In this document: piece after piece, positions 99-20,352 of the stretch
Layout: each line of letters starts with the position of its first letter
How positions within the stretch are numbered: position 1 is the stretch's first letter
Origin: Candidatus Thorarchaeota archaeon
GTDB taxonomy: Archaea > Asgardarchaeota > Thorarchaeia > Thorarchaeales > Thorarchaeaceae
Assembly: GCA_016840855.1 (NCBI GenBank)
Contig: JAEORO010000167.1
Coordinates: 1-20,352 of the forward strand
DNA: 20,352 nt
Direction of reading: 5' to 3'
Made by a program: the position numbers and the translations under genes
Notes under the pieces: generated by a model
Database searches by the model: none
Told to the model about the DNA's origin: nothing
The model's input: the letters and a program-made list of their open reading frames with translations, nothing else

Positions 99-235
99 TT
101 CGAAATACGCTCATTCAATTTCTAATGAAATTCAATTGGCTTGAATAATCTCTACTTGTCTTAAAAATCGAATGAAGACTCGCAACATTTGTTTATGTGG
201 ACTTATGTAAACAGTTTGGAGTGCAGGTGTCACTG

Positions 236-1966
236 GTGACAAGTGATAATCACGAAACCTCATGGCTACTCAAGGTAATGGAAGTAGTTCGTGATGGATT
301 TGTGGTTATCCAGGACGAAGACATCATCCTCACAAATACCGCCTTTGTAGATATGCTGGGCGTTGAGAAGGATGATCTTTTGGACACTCCTTTTGATGAT
401 ATAATCGACCCAGTATCTCGAAGACGTGATCAAGATATGATTGAGGCTCTTGTGACTGGTGAAAATGCAACACAATTTACTACTCGTCTGGCATCGAAAG
501 ATGGCAACATCCTCCATGTTGAAATTTCTCCAACAGAAATTAAGTTGAATGGAGAACCTGCAATTATTGCTGTCGTTCGGAATATCACTTCACAGATGGA
601 ACTTGAAGCTGCTGTGACAGAGCTTGAAAACCGTTTTGCGACGCTTTACGACATGTCGCCAGTAGCCTATTTCACCTTGAATCGGAATGGTATCATCGAA
701 CAGGTAAATGCTGCAGCTGAGGAATTACTTGGTTCTGATGCTGAAAATCTCATTGGAAAATCGCTATCAGAATTCCTCCCCGACCCAGAACCTCGTTATG
801 ATCCCGGTGCTGATATCGTAAAGGAAGCTCTACGAGGAAAAAGTGTCAGTGGTCTTGAAATCCAAATGAAACGGGGCGACAATAAGGTAATCTGGGCAAA
901 TATCTCTTCTAGCCCTCTAACATCAAGTGGTGAGAAATTAAGTGAAATTGGTCTCACTGCTTTTGATGTGACATCTCGTCGTGGTGTCGAACAAAGACTC
1001 AGGCAAGAGAGTGAAAGAGCAAACTTGTACATGGAAGTCATGAGCAGTGACTTGAACATGACAAATCAGAATGTTCTTTTTGCACTAGAAGATCTGAGCA
1101 TCTCACTAGACCTCCCAGATCGTCTTCGGGGATTGCTCAGCGAAACTGCTTGGAGTGTTCGTAGTGCAGGACGGATGATTGCCAATATGGGCGTGTTGAT
1201 TTCTTTGGGGCAAGCTCCGCCAGACAAAGTACAAACAAGACTTCAGCCGCACTTCAAAAAAGCTGTTAGGGAAGCCACTCGTGATTTTGAATGGAAAACT
1301 ATTAACATAAACTCAAATATCGCTGAACAATCATTTGATGTAGTAGGGCATGCTTTCATTTGGTACATATTCTTCAACATAATTCATTACTGTGCTAGTG
1401 AAGATTTGAGTACAACTGTCGAACTTGAGATAAATGCGAATATGACTGAAGATGAAGACCATGTCCGCATAGAATTTCTGGACCATGGTCCTGGGATTCC
1501 AGATGAACAGAAAGATCAGATTTTCAGGCGATCTGGTGGACCTGAGGAGCAGTTGGCAGGAAAAGGACTTGGACTAACAGTCGTTGATAGGTATATTGAC
1601 CATCTCGGTGGTAGGGTATGGGTCGAGGATAGAGATAGTTCCAATCCTTCTTTGGGAAGCAAGTTCATTGTGCTTTTGCCAGCGTGGAAGGAAGAACTCA
1701 AGATACCTCCTATTATGTTCTATAAGTCAGACCACTGTGTATTCTGTGGTCCTGTTCTTGAATCATTAAACGCTGTTCTTAAAGAAATGAACATTAGCCC
1801 ATCGAACATTCAACTGATCAATGTTGATGACCCCAATTCAGAAGTGAGTGAGGAAGAGTTGCCTGCCTTGCCTACAATCTACATGGGAGCAAAGCAACTT
1901 GCAGGCTTCGTATCAGAAGATGACTTGAGAGTAGAAATCTCCACGATGCTATTAATGTCTGGCTAA
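236..1966 (+). CDS. Soluble PAS-PAS histidine-kinase-like protein (probable pseudokinase) with a C-terminal thioredoxin-like CxxC domain
   Basis: The ORF is open from GTG 197; GTG 236 follows an AGGTG SD-like motif and gives an N-terminus closer in length to the paralog's. It has two PAS/PAC repeats, a degenerate H-box (EVMSSDL), a degenerate N-box (FNIIHYC), G1 DHGPGI and G2 GKGLGL. The C-terminal ~85 aa read FYKSDHCVFC...INVD...ALPTI...GF, a thioredoxin fold pattern with a cis-Pro motif. No TM segments are apparent. Confidence 0.88.
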   Translation: MTSDNHETSWLLKVMEVVRDGFVVIQDEDIILTNTAFVDMLGVEKDDLLDTPFDDIIDPVSRRRDQDMIEALVTGENATQFTTRLASKDGNILHVEISPTEIKLNGEPAIIAVVRNITSQMELEAAVTELENRFATLYDMSPVAYFTLNRNGIIEQVNAAAEELLGSDAENLIGKSLSEFLPDPEPRYDPGADIVKEALRGKSVSGLEIQMKRGDNKVIWANISSSPLTSSGEKLSEIGLTAFDVTSRRGVEQRLRQESERANLYMEVMSSDLNMTNQNVLFALEDLSISLDLPDRLRGLLSETAWSVRSAGRMIANMGVLISLGQAPPDKVQTRLQPHFKKAVREATRDFEWKTININSNIAEQSFDVVGHAFIWYIFFNIIHYCASEDLSTTVELEINANMTEDEDHVRIEFLDHGPGIPDEQKDQIFRRSGGPEEQLAGKGLGLTVVDRYIDHLGGRVWVEDRDSSNPSLGSKFIVLLPAWKEELKIPPIMFYKSDHCVFCGPVLESLNAVLKEMNISPSNIQLINVDDPNSEVSEEELPALPTIYMGAKQLAGFVSEDDLRVEISTMLLMSG

Positions 1967-3657: not shown

Positions 3658-4782
3658 TTGATAGATAATGATGTGCCGATGACAGAGTTTGCTCTTCAGA
3701 TAAAACGCAATGTAACTTTCATTATCAAGATACTTGTAGTGCTGTCTTTCCCTCTAGTAGCTCTTGTTGGCATACCATACTTTGGGTGGATTTCTGTCCT
3801 GCTTGTTGTTGGAGATGTTTCAGTTTTTCAATTTACTTCATTCGTATCGGTCTTTGTAGGTTTAATTATTATGTTTCCATGCATAGTATTTGAATTATAT
3901 CTAAAATCTAGACCAATTACAAGATCAGTACGTTTTCTAGCGATAATTGCTTCTGTTACGTGCTGGGTTCTCAGTGTTTCTTTTCCATTCAGTATTATAA
4001 TCCCCCGAGATGTTTATATTCCGTACTATATCCCTTCATACTATACTATTAATTATGGACCAGTCCTAGCCATTACATTCTTTGTCGTACTACCATTAAT
4101 CACTCGAGAATCAATCCTGCATAGCATACCAAATGAATTACGCTCTAAGAACTATTCTTTAATCAAGTCATTAGCTGGTAAAAAGATACGACGTGAGAAG
4201 GTTCTATCTGGACTTCTTTGGTTTGGTCTCATGTTCTGTCCCTTCTTGATGATTCCAATTTATCCGAACCAATTCCAGTACATGTCTATCTTTTACATAT
4301 ATTCTCCATATTCTCTTTATAGCATTATTGAGGTATTAACTCCCTATTTTTCTATGGAACTAACCGCTATGATTGCAGTAGGACTACCAATCGTTCTTCT
4401 TTTGTCTGCAATACGTTTTGTGTTTATAAGAGATGTACTTCGGTTCAAAATTACTAGAATTGCGAAATCTAGATTGGTGTCAGTAGCAATATTGGGTGAA
4501 ATTCTACCTGCTGCTGTCATAACATTAATTGGTCTAATTTTTTTCCAACAAGGTTACTGGCCGTTAGTTTTTCCATCACCAATTCTCCCAATCCTTGGTT
4601 TTGCTTATATAAGATTAAATAGAGCAATACCCATCAAAGATGAGATTTGGGATGATCAAGAAAATAGAATGTGGTTTGAAAAAGAACGAGAACCATTCAT
4701 TACGCAACCCGGAGATGAATCAATTAAGGTACCAATAGCATATCTCTTGGTTTCGCAAGTTCGTAGGCTTCTCAAGCAGTAA
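3658..4782 (+). CDS. Hypothetical polytopic membrane protein (about 8 TM segments)
   Basis: 374-aa ORF with AGGAG before TTG 3658, many hydrophobic segments and a short soluble C-tail. No family motif was recognised. Confidence 0.7.
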   Translation: MIDNDVPMTEFALQIKRNVTFIIKILVVLSFPLVALVGIPYFGWISVLLVVGDVSVFQFTSFVSVFVGLIIMFPCIVFELYLKSRPITRSVRFLAIIASVTCWVLSVSFPFSIIIPRDVYIPYYIPSYYTINYGPVLAITFFVVLPLITRESILHSIPNELRSKNYSLIKSLAGKKIRREKVLSGLLWFGLMFCPFLMIPIYPNQFQYMSIFYIYSPYSLYSIIEVLTPYFSMELTAMIAVGLPIVLLLSAIRFVFIRDVLRFKITRIAKSRLVSVAILGEILPAAVITLIGLIFFQQGYWPLVFPSPILPILGFAYIRLNRAIPIKDEIWDDQENRMWFEKEREPFITQPGDESIKVPIAYLLVSQVRRLLKQ

Positions 4783-4789
4783 TGAAGAA

Positions 4790-6229
4790 TTATGTGGAAT
4801 CGAAAACTAGTGTCTTTATTACTACCGGAACCACAACATCTTCTATAATTGGTTCACCAATATCAATAAAATCCCCTTCTTTCAACTTAATTTCATCTAT
4901 GGAAAGCAATTCATTCTGAATTCCTGTTTCTCGTTTTATGACATTGCCAACACTGTTGCCAATATCTGCATCAAAACACATGAAGATAGGCGTCTTGTTT
5001 TTGACGGTGTTAGGTAGTGCACCAATGACGCCTATTGCGAACTCTTTGAGGATTTCATACGACGGTTTGACAGAATTATTAAAGGCTAGAATTAGAGGAT
5101 CAACGCCTTCAGCTAAATCAAATCTTGAAAGAGCTCGTTCAATTGCTATCTTCACATCTACCGAGGATGGCTGCCTGCTGAGAATGAATGGCTCAACAAC
5201 TGGTAAGTTACGTAGAGGATATTCAAGACCCGTTGAAAGGAAAGTCGTCGACCCGCTAACCTGAAGACTGAAATTACCTGCTCCTATGACTGTGGCTCGA
5301 ATTCCATGCTCTGGTTTTCCTATTGGGATTTCCAGTTCAGAACTCTTCTCTTTTATCGCCATAGCCAATGAAACGCCAAGATCATTAAACACCCGCTCCT
5401 CGTTTCCATAGATGTATTCAGCAACACCTCCAGAGAATGAAATGCTGTCAATTGATCCCTCATAATGAAGCGGAGGTGCCATCATGAGCATACTTGCTAT
5501 GCTGGAAAGAGGTTTCTGTTGCATGCATTGAATTAAGGCTTCAGCAAGAGCATCTGCTAAAATATTCTGACATGATTCTGAGAGGACTTGCCCTAATTTT
5601 AGACTTAACCCCAACTCTTTTGCTATGTTTTTACCTGTGTCTTCTAGGCGAGTGATTTGTCTATTATCATCAAGAGCTATTAACCTCCCGCCCACATTAA
5701 TAGCAGTCGTAGCAACAACTCGCCCCTCCCTACAAATAGCAATATTTGATGAACCGCCACCGATATCAACATTCATTATTGTTATACCTAAATCAGCTGA
5801 CTTGGTGACAGCTCCCGAACCATATGCTGCAAGAACAGATTCGAAATTTGGTCCTGCAGTTGCAGCTACAAACTTACCCGCTTCCCCTGCGAGGGCACTA
5901 ACAATCCATTCCGCATTCTCCTTCTTGGCTGTTTCACCAGTGATGATAACAGCACCTGTATCTATCTGTGAAATGGAAAAGCCTGCGTTCCTATAATCTA
6001 TTAATAGCAAGTCTCTGAGCTGCTCAAAGTCGATGTTTCTTGAGTCCTTGAATGGTGTCAGATGAATAGGTCCTGAATGTAGGATACTTCGCTCCTTGAT
6101 TTCGAACTTCTCAGCACGAGAGTTCTCATCTCTTTCAAGTACTATTTTGCTGAACACGATATGGGAAGTGGAAGAACCAATATCGACACCTACACTAGTG
6201 AGTTCCTTTCGTTTTGTGAGAATAACCAT
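4790..6229 (-). CDS. eutA: EutA-family ethanolamine ammonia-lyase reactivating factor (ASKHA/actin-like ATPase)
   Basis: Motifs SVGVDIGSSTSHIVFS, TGAVIITGETAKKENA, FVAATAGPNFESVLAAYGSGA, NVDIGGGSSN, SFSGGVAEYIY, IRATVIGAG and the C-terminal GDFIDIG...VPVVIKTLVF. ATG 6229 follows GGTGA; the ORF is open to GTG 6241. Confidence 0.92.
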   Translation of the reverse strand: MVILTKRKELTSVGVDIGSSTSHIVFSKIVLERDENSRAEKFEIKERSILHSGPIHLTPFKDSRNIDFEQLRDLLLIDYRNAGFSISQIDTGAVIITGETAKKENAEWIVSALAGEAGKFVAATAGPNFESVLAAYGSGAVTKSADLGITIMNVDIGGGSSNIAICREGRVVATTAINVGGRLIALDDNRQITRLEDTGKNIAKELGLSLKLGQVLSESCQNILADALAEALIQCMQQKPLSSIASMLMMAPPLHYEGSIDSISFSGGVAEYIYGNEERVFNDLGVSLAMAIKEKSSELEIPIGKPEHGIRATVIGAGNFSLQVSGSTTFLSTGLEYPLRNLPVVEPFILSRQPSSVDVKIAIERALSRFDLAEGVDPLILAFNNSVKPSYEILKEFAIGVIGALPNTVKNKTPIFMCFDADIGNSVGNVIKRETGIQNELLSIDEIKLKEGDFIDIGEPIIEDVVVPVVIKTLVFDST

Positions 6230-6344
6230 ATTGAATTTCACCGTTCAGCAATAACGAGCGCCAAGTATTTCGTCCTTTTAGATTTATGATAGCGCGCAAT
6301 ATTTTAGCGGGTTCGTTAATTGACAGAGCAGGAGACTAACAAAG

Positions 6345-7844: not shown

Positions 7845-8792
7845 ATGATAGGGCTTCAAGACATCTATGACGCTCATCATAGAATTAGAGACTATGCGCT
7901 TTGGACACCAGTTATGACTTCATCGACAATAGATAAGTTGACTGATTCTCAAGTCTTCTTTAAGTGTGAGAACTTTCAACGTGCTGGTGCTTTCAAATTT
8001 AGAGGAGCTCTAAATACTCTAACACAATTAACTCAAGAGGAACGTGATAGAGGCGTCATTGCCCATTCATCTGGAAATCATGCTCAAGCTGTTGCTCTTG
8101 CAGCTTCTCTTTCAGGTATGAAGGCAACAATAGTGATGCCCAAGAATTCACCAAAAGTAAAGGTTGATGCGACACGAGGATACGGTGCTGAAATAGTGTT
8201 TTGTGAAAACTCAATTGAGAGCAGAGTTCAAGTTGCAAACCAATTAATCGAGAAACACGACTATGTGCTAATTCATCCTTACAATGATGAACGGATTATT
8301 GCAGGAGCTGGAACAGCTGCTTTGGAGCTCATTGAAGAAGTTAAAGAATTAGACTATATCTTTGCTCCCGTAGGTGGTGGGGGTCTTTTAAGCGGAACAT
8401 CAATTACTACAAAGGGACTTTGTACTGGAGCTAAAGTGATTGGTGTTGAGCCAAAGAATGCTGATGATGCATATCGATCTTTCAGAGATGGGAGAATCTA
8501 CCCAAGCATCAACCCAAATACAATAGCTGATGGTCTCAGGACTCAACTTGGGGAAATAACCTTTCGAATAATCAGAAAAAATGTTGATTCCATCATTACT
8601 GTTTCAGAAAAAGAGATTGTAAATGCAATGCGACTACTCTGGGAACGAATGAAAATTCTAGTTGAACCATCTGGAGCAGTTTCACTTGCTGGGACTATCA
8701 AGATGAATGATAGCTTTTCTGGAAAGAGGGTTGGTGTTATCATCAGCGGAGGTAATATCGATCTCTCGGAGTTCTTCTCAAAATACTCATGA
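7845..8792 (+). CDS. PLP-dependent fold-type II enzyme: serine racemase / serine-threonine dehydratase / threo-3-hydroxyaspartate ammonia-lyase-like, without a C-terminal ACT domain
   Basis: FKCENFQRAGAFKFRGA (PLP Lys), HSSGNHAQA, PVGGGGL, EPKNADD, TIADG, VEPSGA and ISGGNID. ATG 7845 is used; the ORF is open from 7818. Confidence 0.88.
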   Translation: MIGLQDIYDAHHRIRDYALWTPVMTSSTIDKLTDSQVFFKCENFQRAGAFKFRGALNTLTQLTQEERDRGVIAHSSGNHAQAVALAASLSGMKATIVMPKNSPKVKVDATRGYGAEIVFCENSIESRVQVANQLIEKHDYVLIHPYNDERIIAGAGTAALELIEEVKELDYIFAPVGGGGLLSGTSITTKGLCTGAKVIGVEPKNADDAYRSFRDGRIYPSINPNTIADGLRTQLGEITFRIIRKNVDSIITVSEKEIVNAMRLLWERMKILVEPSGAVSLAGTIKMNDSFSGKRVGVIISGGNIDLSEFFSKYS

Positions 8793-11072
8793 AGAATTGT
8801 TACGTTCTTGAGCACTTGGTAGCCAAACTACGAACTCTGCTCCTTTGGTAGGCTCTCCTTTTACACGGTCTCTTACATCAATGCGACCCCTGTATTTGTC
8901 ACAGATTTGTTTTGATTGGTGAAGCCCAACTCCTCCATAACGACGTGACAAATCAAAGATGGCAGCTTTAAGCGAACCTGAAATTCCTTGTCCATTGTCA
9001 CTTACTGCAATTTCATATCCCTCTCCGCTGTCCTTGAGTGAGATCCAGACAATTCTTTCCTCTCTGGGATTGTGCTCTATTGCATTTTCAATAAGATTTC
9101 CAAGAAGTTGTTCGAGGAATTGGTCAGCTTCTACAAGCGCATTATCTACCTTTAGTGATAAATCAAAAGCAACATCTCTATGTTGATTTTTATATGATTC
9201 AGCAACAGACTCTATTGTTGTACTCAGTTTTCTTATCCTCAATGGGACTGACATTAAGGGTTCTGTCACTTTTACTTTTGATATCATACTTTGACATCTT
9301 TCAACTGAGGAAACAATTTGTCCTAGCAATCGACGCGCTTCAGGGTCTTGAAGATTCATCTCCATTACCATAGTGCTTCCTAAAATAATCTGAAGTTGAT
9401 TTCGAAAGTCATGAGCCATTAAATCAATAAGATGCATCGCCCGTTCCTTTTGGGTTTCAATATGTTTCTCTGCGTCAAGACGATCAGTCACATTCATAGT
9501 AACGATTTGGAGTGCTGGAGCTTCTTCATACTCGACACGTCTGCCAAAAATTTCTAACCATTGCATGTCTCCATCTTTTTGGAAGACACGAATGAGCATT
9601 GGTATCCTCTGAGGTGGTTCTCCTTTCATTAATTCCTCTAATCGCTTCATGGCGGGATCCCAATCATCGGGATGTATCATGCTTTGAATTTCCTTTGGAG
9701 ATAATGCGAGTACTTCATCAACTGTTCTTTCGAGAAAACCAGCAAAAGCCGGGTTTGCGAACTTGATTTGCAGAGGGAGGGTTTGAATAATCATGAAACC
9801 CTGAAATGATTGGTCTATTAACGCACGATATTTTGCTTCTGATTTTATCAGAGCTTTTTGGCTTTCTTTCCTCTCTTCTATATTCCTAGCTACTCCAAGT
9901 ATGCCTGTCGGAACTCCATCAGAATCTCTTGTAAAGGTTCTTGCAACTTCAACCCATACCATAGAACCATCTTTTCTTTTGAGATGTATCTCTAATGGTG
10001 GTGAATCGCCGCGGATTAATGAACCAGCTGCATCCTTTTCTTCATCAAGAGCGAGCTTAACTGCCTCAATAGCTGTCCAGACTGACTCTGGAGCCATTAA
10101 CTCAATCAATGATTTTCCAGTAACTTCTTCAACAGAAAAACCCAGAAGCAATTCTACTGAAGGACTAACATAAGTGAGGTTTAATTCCATATCGGAAGTA
10201 AAAATAATATCAATAATGTTGTCAGCGAGAAGTTTGTATCGTTTCTCAGTATCTTCTAGAGCAGCTTCTTTCCGTTTCTCCTCTGTAATCTCAAGGAGCT
10301 GGCTCAAATATCCCTTAAGTTCTCCTCCATTTTCTAATCCTAATGGCGTCACCCACGTGTCTAATATTATTTTACCCGATCGAGAAGTTGGATAGAGTTC
10401 TTTCTCTTTCACTTTTTCGAAGTCAAACGTGGTTTCATACTTCACAGCTTCTCCTCTGATTAATTCAGCCTTGAACTCGTTTGGTACGTTTGGATCGTCA
10501 AAAAGACTGAATCCTATGAGATCATTAAGATCCGAAATTCCCCCTATATCCAATGCTGCTTGATTTGCGGCAATAAGAATTCCATTTGGATCAAACAACT
10601 CAATCCCTAATTGAGACTCCTCGAAAATTCTTCGCATCATCTCTACATTTTCTTCTAGAGCTTTTCGAGAAGCTTTCAGTTCAGTGATATCAGTAATCAC
10701 AGCAAAAGACCCTCGATGACCTCCTTCACGATTTAGCAGAGGAGCTCCTGATACTATTGTAGGTACCTGCTCACCTGTACTTCGACTCCATGCAACCTCA
10801 TATTGGGTGGCTTCACCTTTAGTTCGTCTTCTGATATTTTCACGAATGATTTTCTTGTTTTTTTCGTCAACAAAATCAAGGAGATGCCTGCCAACCATGT
10901 CGTCTACAGAATAATTGAGCATATTTGCAAAACGTGAATTAACGTAAGTGAAAACACCGTCTATATCAATAATTCCAAATCCATCGTTCATCGAGTCCAC
11001 TAGTGCTCTGAAAAGTGTAGCTTCCTCTTCTTGCGAGATTAAGTGATTTGATATAGGTTCTGGGTCTTTCAT
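8787..11072 (-). CDS. Cytoplasmic multi-PAS (four PAS/PAC) sensor histidine kinase
   Basis: Four PAS repeats ending in DITE, EITE, NIEE and NVTD, an intact H-box LMAHDFRNQL, N-box NLIENAIEH, G1 DNGQGI and G2 GGVGL. No TM helices. Confidence 0.93.
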   Translation of the reverse strand: MKDPEPISNHLISQEEEATLFRALVDSMNDGFGIIDIDGVFTYVNSRFANMLNYSVDDMVGRHLLDFVDEKNKKIIRENIRRRTKGEATQYEVAWSRSTGEQVPTIVSGAPLLNREGGHRGSFAVITDITELKASRKALEENVEMMRRIFEESQLGIELFDPNGILIAANQAALDIGGISDLNDLIGFSLFDDPNVPNEFKAELIRGEAVKYETTFDFEKVKEKELYPTSRSGKIILDTWVTPLGLENGGELKGYLSQLLEITEEKRKEAALEDTEKRYKLLADNIIDIIFTSDMELNLTYVSPSVELLLGFSVEEVTGKSLIELMAPESVWTAIEAVKLALDEEKDAAGSLIRGDSPPLEIHLKRKDGSMVWVEVARTFTRDSDGVPTGILGVARNIEERKESQKALIKSEAKYRALIDQSFQGFMIIQTLPLQIKFANPAFAGFLERTVDEVLALSPKEIQSMIHPDDWDPAMKRLEELMKGEPPQRIPMLIRVFQKDGDMQWLEIFGRRVEYEEAPALQIVTMNVTDRLDAEKHIETQKERAMHLIDLMAHDFRNQLQIILGSTMVMEMNLQDPEARRLLGQIVSSVERCQSMISKVKVTEPLMSVPLRIRKLSTTIESVAESYKNQHRDVAFDLSLKVDNALVEADQFLEQLLGNLIENAIEHNPREERIVWISLKDSGEGYEIAVSDNGQGISGSLKAAIFDLSRRYGGVGLHQSKQICDKYRGRIDVRDRVKGEPTKGAEFVVWLPSAQERNNSS

Positions 11073-12350: not shown

Positions 12351-12974
12351 TCATCCTAATTCACTTAGGTGACCATCATCAATTTCAGTAACTGCTGCTT
12401 TTACTCTATTTTTTAGTTTCACCAAAAGTCTACTGATTCCGTTAACATAATCTGGATTATTCTCTTCTTCCAAAAGAGTGGCATATCCCATTATATTGTG
12501 TGCAATACCTGTGATATCATGAGAGAGTTTATGGATGAACTTGCTTGCAACATCCTGTTGTATCATAGATTGCTTGAATCGTGACTTTCTATTTACCAAA
12601 TGCAATATGATCTCCCTGATGGCAGAGAACTGATTTCGATAATCTTGACTTTTTAGTATATAATAGTCTGCACCTAGATTCAGTGATTTAATGGCAATAT
12701 CCTCACTCGAGTGTCCCGTCCATATCGCAAATGCTGTATTATTTCCAGCTGCTCGAATTGCTTCTAGCATTTCCAATCCCGAAGAATCAGGCATCAAGTA
12801 ATCTGAGATTATGACATTGAATTCTTCTTTCTCCAATTTTGCCAAAGCGTCTTTAACAGATGTTGATACAACAATTTCCAAATCCGGGTCCTTCTGCTCA
12901 AGAAGGATCCTTGTTATATCAAGAAGTTCTACATCGTCATCTACAAGTAGAACGCGAATTACCAACCAAATCAC
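12351..12974 (-). CDS. Response regulator: receiver domain plus a C-terminal HisKA-like helical hairpin with no HATPase domain
   Basis: REC motifs VLLVDDD, IISDYLMP (phospho-Asp), WTG and ILK. The C-terminal part reads FIHKLSHDITGIAHNIMGYATLL. The true start may be TTG 12965, after GGGAG. Confidence 0.87.
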   Translation of the reverse strand: MIWLVIRVLLVDDDVELLDITRILLEQKDPDLEIVVSTSVKDALAKLEKEEFNVIISDYLMPDSSGLEMLEAIRAAGNNTAFAIWTGHSSEDIAIKSLNLGADYYILKSQDYRNQFSAIREIILHLVNRKSRFKQSMIQQDVASKFIHKLSHDITGIAHNIMGYATLLEEENNPDYVNGISRLLVKLKNRVKAAVTEIDDGHLSELG

Positions 12975-16409: not shown

Positions 16410-18320
16410 CTATTGCTTTCTAACAAGTCGGAGTGCGTTGGCAATGACTGCGAAGGTGAGGCCCATATCTCCGATGCCAATTGCCATCCAGAGATTAACA
16501 AGACCGAGAGCTGCCAATATCCCAATTACGAGTTTAACTGATATCGATACGGTGATGTTTTGACGAACAATTGTCATAGTCTTCTTTGCTTTCTTGATGA
16601 GAGCTGGAACTTTTCTCAAGTCTTGTTGCATCAACGCAATATCTGCAGTTTCAAGAGCCGCATCTGAAGACACTGCACCCATAGCAATTCCTACGTCAGC
16701 TACTGCTAAGGCTGGAGCATCATTAATCCCATCGCCAACCATAACTGTAGATCCAGAAGCTGAGAGGTCTTCAATGGCTTTGACTTTCTCTTGAGGTAGA
16801 AGCTCTGCCATATAATGGTTGACTCCAATTTCTTCTGCGATTTCCTTTGCGACAATTTCGCTATCGCCAGTGAGCATTGTTGAGTTTATGCCCATGCTTT
16901 TTAATTCCTGAATTGCATCGATTGCACCTTCTCGCAGTGAATCTGACAGGATGATTGTTCCAAGATGCTCGTGGTTTTTAGCGACATATACCATTGTTCC
17001 TACGCCGCACTTGTGTTCTGTGAGTTTTTCCAACTCTATTTCCTGTTCGATGAGGAGTCTTCGATTACCAACAAGATAGGTGATATCTCCTATTGTTCCC
17101 TCTGCGCCTAAACCTGGTATAGCTGAAAACCTATCTACTTCACGCATCTGGAAATCCTCATCCGCAACAGCAGCAACCAAAGCTTTTGCAATGGGATGTT
17201 CTGACATCTGCTCAAGTGCTGCTGCAGCTGTCAGTACATCTGATTTTGTGTAATTATTATGAAGGCATACTTCTTTGACAGCTAGTATTCCTTCTGTAAG
17301 GGTGCCTGTCTTATCAAAAGCAACATTCTTTGTCTTACTAACCTGTTCAATATGAACACCACCTTTTACTAGGATTCCCTCTCTTGCAGACCCTGCGATT
17401 GAAGATACCATGCTAACTGGGATAGAGACTACAAATGCGCATGGGCAGCTAATCACCAAGAGAGTTAAAGCTCGATAAGTTGCTTCAGTTATAGATGAAC
17501 CAAGTAATAATGAGATTAATCCTAGAAGGACTGTAAGAGTAACCATGACTGGAGTGTACTTTCGAGAAAAGCGTGTTATCAGTTTCTCAGTAGGGGCTTT
17601 CTTATTCTTTGCCTCTTCTACTAATTCGACAATTCTTGACAAAATCGTTTCATTTGACTCTGATGTGACTTCAACCTCAATGTATCCTTCTTGGTTTATT
17701 GTACCAGCATATACCTGATCTCCAATAATCTTTGGAACTGGAACTGATTCACCAGTGATAGGTGCCTGGTTCACTGATGTTTCTCCATTCATTATCACTC
17801 CATCAAGGCCGATTCTAGAACCCGGACGAATAATCAGGATATCTCCACGCTTGACCTCAGATGTTGGAATACACGCCTCTGATCCCTTCACTAGAATTGT
17901 AGCTGAGCGCGGCTCCAGTTCTATGAGCCCCCATAATTCTTTCTTTACCTGGTCTTCGGCTCTTTCTTCAAGTAGCATAGAAATGAAGAAGAGGAACATG
18001 ACAGCAGCGCCTTCTGCAGGAGCCCCAATTATGAAAGCTCCAATAGACGCAGATGACATGAGAAAATGCATATCCAATCTGAGCTTCAGAAGTCCCTGAA
18101 CACCACGAGGAATAATGAATTGACCAGCAGACAGCATCGAGATGAGGAATACGCCATACACAATTAGAACATCAAAATTAAGCGCCTCAACTATTATGCC
18201 CAAGGTGAGCATAATGGCTGAAAGGACCGCCATCCGATATTTGAAGCGCTTTGGCTTCACTGGTTCTAATTCTGTGGGATCCGCACAGGTAGTACATATC
18301 TGATTATCTACCTGCGACAT
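16410..18320 (-). CDS. cadA: Heavy-metal-translocating P1B-type ATPase (Zn/Cd/Pb, P1B-2-like; CadA/ZntA)
   Basis: TGES, CPC, DKTGT, SEHP, MLTGD and GDGINDAPAL, plus a Lys in the penultimate TM (SVKL) and GDMG in the last TM. It has an N-terminal CTTC and overlaps the arsR 3' end by 17 nt. Confidence 0.93.
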   Translation of the reverse strand: MSQVDNQICTTCADPTELEPVKPKRFKYRMAVLSAIMLTLGIIVEALNFDVLIVYGVFLISMLSAGQFIIPRGVQGLLKLRLDMHFLMSSASIGAFIIGAPAEGAAVMFLFFISMLLEERAEDQVKKELWGLIELEPRSATILVKGSEACIPTSEVKRGDILIIRPGSRIGLDGVIMNGETSVNQAPITGESVPVPKIIGDQVYAGTINQEGYIEVEVTSESNETILSRIVELVEEAKNKKAPTEKLITRFSRKYTPVMVTLTVLLGLISLLLGSSITEATYRALTLLVISCPCAFVVSIPVSMVSSIAGSAREGILVKGGVHIEQVSKTKNVAFDKTGTLTEGILAVKEVCLHNNYTKSDVLTAAAALEQMSEHPIAKALVAAVADEDFQMREVDRFSAIPGLGAEGTIGDITYLVGNRRLLIEQEIELEKLTEHKCGVGTMVYVAKNHEHLGTIILSDSLREGAIDAIQELKSMGINSTMLTGDSEIVAKEIAEEIGVNHYMAELLPQEKVKAIEDLSASGSTVMVGDGINDAPALAVADVGIAMGAVSSDAALETADIALMQQDLRKVPALIKKAKKTMTIVRQNITVSISVKLVIGILAALGLVNLWMAIGIGDMGLTFAVIANALRLVRKQ

Positions 18321-18627
18321 GATCTCTAGCCCTCTTCATGATGTCTGTGATGCAAGCGTCATCAAGACTATAGAAAACATGTTTTCCAACTCTTTTCTTC
18401 GTTACAAAACCTTGCATCTTCAAGATGCTCAACTGATGACTTACAGCACTTATCTCCATGTTCAGTCTGTCTGATATGTTGCCAACCGAAAGGCTCTCTT
18501 CTTTACTAAGGGTTGATAGAATTTTCACTCTTGATGGATCTGAAAGAGTTTTGAAAATTGTAATGACCTCATCTAGCTCGCTTTCTTTGAAATCTACTCC
18601 TTGGGTAGATGTTCTAGCTATTTTCAT
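18304..18627 (-). CDS. ArsR/SmtB family metal-responsive transcriptional repressor
   Basis: FKTLSDPSRVKIL, SAVSHQLSILK and RVGKHVFYSL. ATG 18627 follows AAGGTG. The longer 18675 start would run through the operator and TATA box. Confidence 0.92.
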   Translation of the reverse strand: MKIARTSTQGVDFKESELDEVITIFKTLSDPSRVKILSTLSKEESLSVGNISDRLNMEISAVSHQLSILKMQGFVTKKRVGKHVFYSLDDACITDIMKRARDHVAGR

Positions 18628-18640
18628 AGAATGCACCTTT

Positions 18641-18658
18641 CTTGAACATTTGTTCAAG
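18641..18658. promoter_or_regulatory. ArsR/SmtB-type operator inverted repeat
   Basis: Perfect 8-2-8 palindrome CTTGAACA-TT-TGTTCAAG containing the TGAA-N6-TTCA core known from SmtB/CzrA operators, 13 bp upstream of the arsR ATG. Confidence 0.8.
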
Positions 18659-18664
18659 TAATCA

Positions 18665-18672
18665 AATATAAA
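18665..18672 (-). promoter_or_regulatory. Putative archaeal TATA box for the arsR-cadA operon
   Basis: TTTATATT on the - strand immediately upstream of the operator. The usual ~25-bp spacing would put the transcription start inside the palindrome. Confidence 0.5.
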
Positions 18673-18791
18673 CATTCAGATGATGTCTAAATTTGGATTT
18701 ACACAAGCAATCTATATGTGGGCAATTCTGGAAGGAATCGTAGGATATAAGCAGATTCAGCGACTATCGATAGGTCTAGGCGGAAAACGAT

Positions 18792-20352
18792 TTGCAGGAT
18801 CAGCACAACAAGAAAGCCAATCTAGAAGACGAATACTTCGGAATGGTGATGTTAGCAAATGATGGTATTGTCATTTTACAGGATGATAGAATCGTTATGG
18901 CTAATCCCGCATTTCTTGAGATGATGGGATATGATTTTGCGAATCTTGAAGGCAAACCAATTACTGATTTACTAGAGCCAACAACAGCTGGTCAGTTCTC
19001 TGATGTTCACAAGAGGTTGAACTGGGGTCAGAGTGGGCAACCTCCTTTTAGAGCACGTTTTCTAAAGAGTGATGGAAGTCTAGTGCATGTTGAAATGAGC
19101 ACGTCTGATTTTGCCCTCTCTCGAAAACCTGCTATAATGGGTATTGTAAGAGATATTACTCATCAAGTCGAACTTGAATCAGCTATTGATGCATCTGAAA
19201 GTAGGTATCGAACGCTATATACTTCATCACCAATCGCATATTTTTCGCTAAGCTTGATGGGCAATATCTTGCAGGTGAATCAAGCAGCAACTCGATTATT
19301 GGGATATAAAGAGGAGGACCTCATTCGAAGAAATTTCTCATCATTTCTTCCAAATGGAGTGGGAAAAGAGATAGTTGGCCAAATGCTTTCTGAAGTAGCT
19401 AATGGAAAGAGTGTTGAAGATTTTGAGATTCAACTGAAAACAGCAGATGGTCGGTCAACTTGGGTTAGTGTGACAGCAAACTTACTTGAATATCCCGACC
19501 AATCATCAACAATTGCTCTGCTCGCTCTCGATATTGACAGACGCAAGAATGCAGAAGCTAGAGAACAAGTGGAACGAGACCGAGCGAATCTGTATCTAGA
19601 AGTCATGACACATGATCTCAATAATGTGAATCAGAGTCTTCTTTTTTCAACCGGACTTCTTGAGAACTCTAGCGATATTCCTGAACAATACCGTCCATTA
19701 TTGCATGAATCTAGCTGGAATGTCCGACGAGCAGCCAGAATGATTGCGAATTTGAGGTTTCTATTTCGTCTAGCAAATGATCCTCCAACGAGGACAAAAG
19801 TCGATATCTACAACTACTTTCAATCCTCCCTTGCATCAGTTCAAGCAGACTTCCCATGGAAAAGGTTGGAATTGACGACCAATATCGAGAAAGGTAAATT
19901 CGAAGTAGCAGGGCACCAATATCTTGAACAAGTGTGCTTTAACATCCTACACAACACAATGACTTTTGACGAGAAGGATGTCGTTGTTGTTGAAGTAAAT
20001 GCTGAAATTGTTGATGAGGTTAAGATGGTTCGTATCGAGTTCTCTGACCACGGACCTGGTATTCCTGATACTGCAAAAGAATTCATTTTTAGAAGAACAG
20101 GCAGTCCGGATGACCAAATTGTTGGTCGAGGTCTTGGTCTTACACTTGTCGATAGGATTGTAAGGAATATCGGTGGCAAGATCCGGGTGGAGGACCGTGT
20201 AAAGGGCGATCACTCACAAGGTGCGCGCTTTGTTCTTATGCTTCCCCTATGGGCTGAAACGCCCGAACTCCATTGTGGTCGAAATACTTGCATAACTTTC
20301 TATAAATCAAATCACTGTGTGTTTTGTGAGCCTGCAATGGAAATCATGACCG
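18792..20352 (+). CDS. Partial gene (3' end truncated by the window): PAS-PAS histidine kinase with a C-terminal thioredoxin-like CxxC domain; paralog of 236..1966
   Basis: Missing from the ORF track because there is no stop in the window. Manual translation from TTG 18792 (in-frame TAG at 18777; alternative ATG 18843) is open to the end: MQDQHNKK...DGIVILQDD...VRDITHQ...ANLYLEVMTHDLNNVNQ (His at 19611-13)...FNILHNT...DHGPGIPD...GRGLGL...LPLWAETPELHCGRNTCITFYKSNHCVFCEPAMEIMT. Confidence 0.9.
   Translation, partial: MQDQHNKKANLEDEYFGMVMLANDGIVILQDDRIVMANPAFLEMMGYDFANLEGKPITDLLEPTTAGQFSDVHKRLNWGQSGQPPFRARFLKSDGSLVHVEMSTSDFALSRKPAIMGIVRDITHQVELESAIDASESRYRTLYTSSPIAYFSLSLMGNILQVNQAATRLLGYKEEDLIRRNFSSFLPNGVGKEIVGQMLSEVANGKSVEDFEIQLKTADGRSTWVSVTANLLEYPDQSSTIALLALDIDRRKNAEAREQVERDRANLYLEVMTHDLNNVNQSLLFSTGLLENSSDIPEQYRPLLHESSWNVRRAARMIANLRFLFRLANDPPTRTKVDIYNYFQSSLASVQADFPWKRLELTTNIEKGKFEVAGHQYLEQVCFNILHNTMTFDEKDVVVVEVNAEIVDEVKMVRIEFSDHGPGIPDTAKEFIFRRTGSPDDQIVGRGLGLTLVDRIVRNIGGKIRVEDRVKGDHSQGARFVLMLPLWAETPELHCGRNTCITFYKSNHCVFCEPAMEIMT

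Follow-up and report, generated by a model that had tools for sequence, protein, structure and literature searches.

Two paralogous genes on a Candidatus Thorarchaeota contig encode sensor-kinase-like proteins that continue past the ATP-binding domain into a small domain predicted to have the thioredoxin fold, and only one of the two keeps the phospho-accepting histidine. The contig (JAEORO010000167.1, assembly GCA_016840855.1) was analysed over 20,352 nucleotides, hereafter called the window. The first gene, referred to as type A, lies at 197..1966 on the forward strand and specifies 589 amino acids (aa) from a GTG at 197. Its product is a soluble protein with two PAS domains, a dimerisation and histidine phosphotransfer (DHp) hairpin, a catalytic ATP-binding (CA) domain and the thioredoxin-like tail. 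The second gene, type B, lies at 18792..20351 on the forward strand. A preliminary description of the window had reported an extension of ~85 residues past the HATPase_c domain of type A with a CVFC motif at 1736-1747, and the same junction in the paralog from 18792 onwards with CVFC at 20316-20327. Both were confirmed when the translations were checked, and in both paralogs no more than a short linker (8-12 residues) separates the ATP-binding domain from the tail. The two genes had also been proposed to form a two-component system. That part stands for type B, in which the H-box histidine is present in 20/20 sequences, and falls for type A, which has a serine (Ser284) at this position. As the H-box residue of type A is never a histidine among its 88 orthologs, the gene cannot be regarded as a conventional histidine kinase.

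Fold and conservation of the tail

The tail of type A was modelled alone with AlphaFold2 from 61 sequences, comprising that of the window and 60 of the 67 other distinct tails from related loci (six near-duplicates and one aberrant sequence were omitted). The resulting model had a pLDDT of 92.1 and a pTM of 0.83. A Foldseek search of the Protein Data Bank (PDB) returned 32 matches at E≤1e-3, of which, among the matches listed, almost all were thioredoxins or their close kin (probability 1.00, TM 0.55-0.75). Alignment with VIA-align to the Thermus thioredoxin 1v98 gave a Z of 10.9 and a root-mean-square deviation (rmsd) of 2.4 over 85 residues. When a profile of the tail was searched against PDB sequences, the MJ0307 thioredoxin 1fo5 ranked highest among 25 hits (E 0.0026, positions 5-83 against 4-82), with the CxxC and Pro-Thr loop of the tail aligned to those of 1fo5 and P559 to its proline. 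The linker (residues 498-505) and the domain itself occupy 1694..1963 on the forward strand and follow the order strand-helix-strand-strand-strand-helix, which was recovered after residue 505 in a model of the full-length protein as well (pLDDT 83.9). C514 and C517 of the CVFC motif (residues 514-517, 1736..1747, forward strand) lie in the loop before helix 1 and in the first turn of that helix (517-530), respectively. P559 directly precedes strand 3 (560-563), the place at which solved thioredoxins have a cis-proline facing the CxxC.

Curated family models were less forthcoming. TIGR00411, the NCBIfam model of the MJ0307 thioredoxin family, aligned to the tail nearly end to end, though with 13.2 bits against a cut-off of 92.75 (E 0.07). 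Pfam returned nothing significant for the last 90 residues, where the best match was Glrx-like (E 0.2) and neither Thioredoxin_3 nor KaiB was listed at E≤1. A weak match to AhpC-TSA (E 0.08) was read as general likeness to the thioredoxin fold and not as a sign of a peroxiredoxin. The tail shares with thioredoxins of the MJ0307 type (1fo5; TIGR00411; Thioredoxin_3) a length of ~85 residues, the same order of fold elements, a CxxC at the start of a helix and a Pro-Thr loop. It differs from them in being fused to a kinase rather than free-standing, in the residues between and before the cysteines and in its scores, which are far below the cut-offs; type B and a free-standing sister family moreover add four or more cysteines. 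On the strength of the models, the tail can be taken as a real thioredoxin-fold domain, small and of the MJ0307 / Thioredoxin_3 kind, in line with the fold that the preliminary description had proposed.

The active-site elements of that fold do not vary. In all 88 orthologs S511, H513, C514, F516, C517, P519 and each of the six residues L555-T560 are invariant, the last of these forming the LPALPT loop (1859..1876, forward strand), and G570 is kept in 87/88. The invariant H513 stands immediately before CVFC. The last 84 residues hold 16 of the 40 invariant columns of the alignment. C514 and C517 were likewise present in 50/50 type-A and 20/20 type-B sequences read from genome loci. At one locus on a short contig (L049: 324-599) the type-A tail diverges before the CxxC and its strand 1 is unrecognisable, which may reflect a frameshift or an assembly error. 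Proteins from Methanobacterium (L050) and Nitrospiraceae (L051) match only the PAS and kinase part, lack the tail and were rejected as members of the family.

A search with residues 500-589 yielded 271 candidates, of which 87 proteins passed E≤0.001; almost all of these are 560-615 aa long, and the full-length model was built on them. Those with names were Thorarchaeota, bar one labelled Hodarchaeota and one Promethearchaeota. All 87 carried labels for PAS and HATPase_c families only, so that the kinase-thioredoxin architecture is invisible to domain-based surveys. A search of a protein atlas with residues 345-589 found only plain HATPase_c clusters.

Type A, type B and the phospho-accepting histidine

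Ahead of the tail, type A has the layout of a PAS sensor kinase. Its start may be a GTG at 236 or an ATG at 278 rather than the GTG at 197, since many orthologs are 562 or 576 aa long. The frame runs ~90 residues past the HATPase_c match (residues 394-496) to a stop codon at 1964-1966. No membrane helix was found in type A or type B, neither containing a 19-residue stretch that is hydrophobic enough (type A maximum Kyte-Doolittle 1.43). The two PAS domains (residues about 27-139 and 145-259; 275..973) match Pfam PAS_9 in two stretches with 92.4 bits, and TIGR00229 also in two stretches. They are followed by the DHp hairpin (971..1213; helices 259-303 and 308-339), which is the best-conserved region of type A with a mean column identity of 0.81, and by the CA domain (1229..1687; HATPase_c 55.1 bits against a cut-off of 26.4). 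The N box (1373-1390), G1 box (1481-1495) and G2 box (1559-1576) are all intact in the gene of the window; all of these features lie on the forward strand.

The H-box position was set by aligning the DHp regions of both paralogs with that of a third kinase of the window (8787-11072), whose H-box region matches Pfam HisKA. By this alignment Ser284 (1046..1048, forward strand) occupies the place of the phospho-accepting histidine. Residue 284 is serine in 79 of the 88 orthologs, threonine in 6 and glutamine, asparagine and arginine in one each. Seventy distinct full-length or nearly full-length frames from related loci were sorted into the two types, and the H-box histidine was found in 0/50 of type A and 20/20 of type B. 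The G1 and G2 glycines are present in 20/20 type-B sequences, whereas those of G1 are eroded in type A (G431 in 54/88 and G433 in 58/88 orthologs; 43/50 and 45/50 in the locus set). Type A thus appears to be a pseudo-kinase, with its histidine replaced and its DHp and CA folds kept, and would be unable to autophosphorylate on histidine.

Type B is colinear with type A and 40% identical to it over 511 aa (E 4e-135). The gene is cut by the end of the contig at 20352 after 520 codons, about 70 codons before its expected end (orthologs are 588-641 aa), and a tblastn search of the other contigs in the assembly did not recover the missing end. Its HATPase_c domain scores 60.6 bits against a cut-off of 26.4. 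The H-box His274 (19611-19613), G1 box (20046-20060), G2 box (20124-20141) and the start of the thioredoxin-like domain (20274..20327) could all be placed on the forward strand. This last segment contains CGRNTC (20274-20291), with two accessory cysteines of the linker, and CVFC (20316-20327); the other two accessory cysteines would lie beyond the contig end. Exactly six cysteine columns are conserved in type B (19/19 full-length orthologs), all in the C-terminal domain: two in the linker before strand 1, the CxxC pair, one in the turn after strand 3 and one near the C-terminus. In type A only C514 and C517 are conserved (50/50). The four accessory cysteines of type B may form a metal site at the pole opposite the CxxC, because in the topology of thioredoxins that pole is where strand 1 begins, the chain turns from strand 3 to strand 4 and the last helix ends.

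A maximum-likelihood tree was built from 68 of the 70 frames, two shorter than 540 aa being left out, and the third kinase served as outgroup; it was made by a quick search with support from the Shimodaira-Hasegawa-like approximate likelihood ratio test (SH-aLRT) only. The 48 type-A rows formed one clade (SH-aLRT 100) nested among type-B rows. The rooting is weak, as the deep splits within type B are not resolved and a long branch leads to the outgroup. All six cysteines are still present in nine early-branching type-A rows, and 38 of the 39 rows with the two-cysteine form, to which the gene of the window belongs, make up a clade with a support of 99. By this tree the two-cysteine form appears derived, type A having lost first its histidine and later the four extra cysteines. 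That the tail was kept under tight constraint after phosphotransfer had been lost suggests that it has a function of its own.

Origin of the tail and gene neighbourhoods

The tail profile was searched against 1.84 billion representative proteins, giving 110 hits at E≤1e-3 and 41 at E≤1e-10. The top hits were kinase fusions or fragments of them. Next came free-standing cysteine-rich proteins of 105-131 aa with the same pattern, one of them named Thorarchaeota, in which up to ten cysteines are arranged in CxxCxC, CxC and CxC groups. Two such genes of ~110 aa without a Pfam family match are present in the genome studied here (contig 86: 24330-24659 and contig 110: 8469-8786; the L098/L099 pair), and a plain two-cysteine thioredoxin-like gene lies on contig 161. 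The neighbours of the L098/L099 pair include peptidases, a Holliday-junction-resolvase-like nuclease, a Cys/Met pyridoxal-phosphate enzyme and MarR-type regulators, and gave no clear lead. Judged by these profile matches, the tail is descended from free-standing cysteine-rich thioredoxin-like proteins found in the same lineage. Hits further out exceed the thresholds of Pfam Thioredoxin_3 (P0170, P0172) or Thioredoxin. Further fusions were found among such proteins (P0165, P0172, P0184, P0198): PAS-thioredoxin-PAS-kinase, thioredoxin with two V4R domains (Jordarchaeales), thioredoxin-Arf and Ras-thioredoxin (Heimdallarchaeota).

Matches to the tail at E≤1e-3 occurred in 248/400 genomes of the phylum and in 84/85 of the family to which the window belongs. 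A hand count was made of 150 rows among the matches listed (351 more lie beyond these). It yielded at least 127 strong rows in at least 76 genomes of the family, at least 50 of which had two or more. Matching frames within the family were about 575-640 aa unless cut by a contig end, and those listed from outside it were <300 aa. Among these matches, the kinase-tail fusion was found only in this one family of the phylum sampled. In eight genomes of the genus to which the window belongs, as in the window itself, one contig carries both copies at a distance of 17.6-20.4 kb.

Type B has a conserved neighbourhood. Divergent from it lies an ArsR/SmtB-type metalloregulator gene (18304..18675, reverse strand; NF033788 80.4 bits against a cut-off of 55), followed in an operon-like arrangement by a gene for a 636 aa heavy-metal P1B-type ATPase of the Zn/Cd family (16410..18320, reverse strand; TIGR01525 559.9 bits, cut-off 346.25; TIGR01512 475.4 bits, cut-off 313.5). 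The ATPase has a Cys-Pro-Cys membrane motif and an N-terminal CxxC, and Pfam detected no separate metal-binding domain. The relatives' loci examined were 14 of 20 type-B loci. They were chosen to represent different genera, of which they cover six to seven, and their type-B sequences are as little as 36-50% identical. Both genes are divergent from type B in 10/14 of these and the ATPase is present in 11/14. The listed ArsR frame is 123 aa, and its real start is probably an internal Met at 18627, given that orthologs are 99-131 aa long. An 11-2-11 inverted repeat (18638..18661, 91% complementary) in the region between ArsR and type B would therefore lie upstream of the gene, as a candidate ArsR operator. 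Palindromes of the form TGAAC-spacer-GTTCA occur in the same place at L085, L089, L093 and L095, and more loosely at L090, among 11 intergenic regions of relatives scanned. The genes downstream of type B in relatives encode a 135 aa protein of unknown function, a bPH_2 membrane protein and a leucine-rich repeat protein, and no receiver domain.

The 16 genes between the paralogs have unrelated functions: TrmO, an MscS channel, an unknown protein, a EutA-like protein, a nitroreductase, ACT, pyridoxamine-oxidase-like and PALP proteins, the third PAS kinase, a Y-family polymerase, a receiver, SfsA, an ABC pair, the P-type ATPase and ArsR. The block beside type A (TrmO, MscS, the unknown gene, EutA-like, nitroreductase, ACT, PALP and the third kinase) was rejected as an operon because it persists only down to a type-A identity of about 60%. 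No type-A neighbour was common to more than 6 of 18 loci, chosen for divergence from 49 Asgard loci. The third PAS kinase (8787-11072, reverse strand; 761 aa) has a normal H box and lacks the thioredoxin tail; its synteny is kept among close relatives. The only receiver in the window is an orphan 207 aa protein (12351-12974, reverse strand), the last ~90 residues of which match no Pfam family; it is a candidate partner that adjoins neither kinase. The EutA-like gene (4790-6241, reverse strand; Pfam EutA, E 6e-137) occurs without other ethanolamine-utilisation genes in the window, and adjoins a gene for a conserved 374 aa protein with no family match (3658-4782, forward strand).

Possible functions of the tail

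The reading that we favour, and to which we give an even chance of being right, is that the tail is a thiol switch. It would respond to the cytoplasmic thiol state or to a thiophilic ligand and alter the ATP-binding domain of type B, while type A would act as a binding pseudo-kinase in the manner of DivL. Formation of a disulfide at the CxxC, or binding of a thiophilic ligand there, would shift the seating of the tail on the ATP-binding domain, and this seating would set the kinase output of type B. In type B the four accessory cysteines would coordinate Zn or an iron-sulfur cluster as a structural or sensory centre that fixes the linker in place. Type A would read the same thiol signal and relay it by binding to type B or to a shared response regulator; a relay of this kind is suggested because the DHp hairpin is its best-conserved part. 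Thiol oxidation sets kinase output in ArcB, RegB/PrrB and SrrB too, through single cysteines in their PAS, DHp or CA domains, whereas here an appended thioredoxin domain would take on this role. DivL of Caulobacter is described in PMC4211667 as a repurposed pseudo-histidine kinase with PAS domains whose transmitter core serves as a binding sensor. Type A resembles it as a PAS kinase-like protein in which the phospho-accepting histidine is replaced (PMC4211667). DivL differs in having no thioredoxin tail, and in its replacement residue and its lineage, and for type A we only infer binding.

Several observations weigh against a thiol switch. Fold alone cannot tell a thioredoxin from KaiB, because fold-switched KaiB (5jwo_B) aligns to the tail with a Z of 9.8 (rmsd 2.6 over 81 residues), within one Z unit of 1v98, and the tail is below the curated threshold of every named thioredoxin family. 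The kinase core of neither type contains a conserved cysteine that could exchange with the CxxC; any coupling must therefore be conformational or through a partner. That the accessory cysteines share one pole is a deduction drawn from the way thioredoxins are folded and from the secondary structure predicted for the type-A tail. No response regulator is conserved beside type A or type B in the relatives' loci examined. Companion genes considered in the preliminary description did not appear either, there being no thioredoxin reductase, V4R or KaiC among the 16 genes of the window that were scanned, to which the search for KaiC was confined. Moreover, the conserved placement of type B beside ArsR and a Zn/Cd-type ATPase favours metal over disulfide chemistry. 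A complex prediction with two type-A cores (259-497) and two tails (498-589) as separate chains scored 0.00 and has no bearing either way.

The objection from metal chemistry points to the main alternative, a metal or iron-sulfur sensor, which we consider somewhat unlikely. In this case the His-Cys-x-x-Cys motif, with the accessory cysteines in type B, would bind Zn, Cd, Cu or a cluster, occupancy rather than a disulfide would be the signal, and type B would be part of the control circuit of the adjoining metal-efflux genes. Such a role would fit the divergent arrangement with ArsR/SmtB and the P1B ATPase in 10/14 loci, set against a type-A neighbourhood kept only among close relatives, together with the invariant histidine directly before the first cysteine, the lack of a proline between the cysteines of the CxxC and the free-standing relatives with up to ten cysteines. 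The best VIA-align and Foldseek matches also include 1v98 and 7d6l, which we take to be Trx2-type thioredoxins with a zinc site. These resemble the type-B tail in combining an active-type CxxC with four accessory cysteines. In Trx2, however, the accessory cysteines form an N-terminal zinc finger, whereas those of type B are found apart from one another in the linker, in the turn between strands 3 and 4 and at the C-terminus. Against a metal sensor, ArsR would already sense the metal, and type A lost its four accessory cysteines, yet its CxxC is equally constrained. Gene order kept among kin is weak evidence; since these relatives are not independent, the link between type B, ArsR and the ATPase is a lead and not proof of function.

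A broader possibility, rather unlikely in our view, is that type A and type B form a single functional unit. Each would read thiol or metal state by its tail, and type A would relay it by binding or disulfide exchange, not by phosphate, to type B, to a shared regulator or to the free-standing cysteine-rich thioredoxin-like proteins. More generally, small thioredoxin domains would be a common signalling module of Asgard archaea, given their fusion to kinases, Ras and Arf GTPases and V4R.

The tail might instead be a docking module only, binding a protein as does the KaiB-like domain of SasA, with cysteines that are structural and do not sense. SasA also has a thioredoxin-like fold attached to a histidine kinase, and fold-switched KaiB (5jwo, 5jyt) is structurally similar to the tail (Z 9.8). 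The elements of the thioredoxin substrate groove that are kept (the CxxC and proline loop in 88/88 and G570 in 87/88) would also suit a fixed partner, and related thioredoxin domains are fused to Ras, Arf GTPases and V4R in other Asgard lineages. However, the KaiB-like domain of SasA is N-terminal and has no CxxC, nor has KaiB, whereas the tail is C-terminal and both of its cysteines are invariant in every sequence examined. It is this invariance that makes KaiB-like docking less likely; Pfam KaiB does not match the tail, KaiC is missing from the window genes, and we give docking alone little credence. Equally improbable is an enzymatic output, in which the tail would reduce disulfides of a specific substrate that it reaches only as the PAS and kinase scaffold allows: all catalytic hallmarks of thioredoxin are intact and the tail is still tightly constrained after type A lost its kinase function, but no gene for a reductase partner or a substrate is linked to it, free-standing thioredoxin-like genes are already present in the genome, and we know of no precedent for a kinase scaffold that controls thioredoxin activity.

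In sensor kinases the last domain is almost always the ATP-binding domain or a receiver. The preliminary description had known of no account of the present architecture, and searches of the literature for kinases with a C-terminal thioredoxin domain turned up none. The available parts of the archaeal two-component census PMC5847659 (its supplementary kinase tables not covered) and of PMC11237479 contain no such kinase, the former mentioning, in those parts, only receiver-thioredoxin-reductase fusions. The architecture combines known kinds, that is a sensor kinase, a pseudo-kinase and a small archaeal thioredoxin. New here are the six cysteines of the live paralog and its position beside metal-efflux genes, the sister family of free-standing proteins, the sequence of losses along the tree and the wider thioredoxin fusions among signalling proteins of Asgard archaea. 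A kinase family that ends in a redox-type thioredoxin domain would, if true, be a new wiring of thiol or metal chemistry into two-component signalling. The fusion occurs in Asgard archaea, in which signalling is almost unstudied, and its pairing of a live with a dead paralog is a natural experiment.

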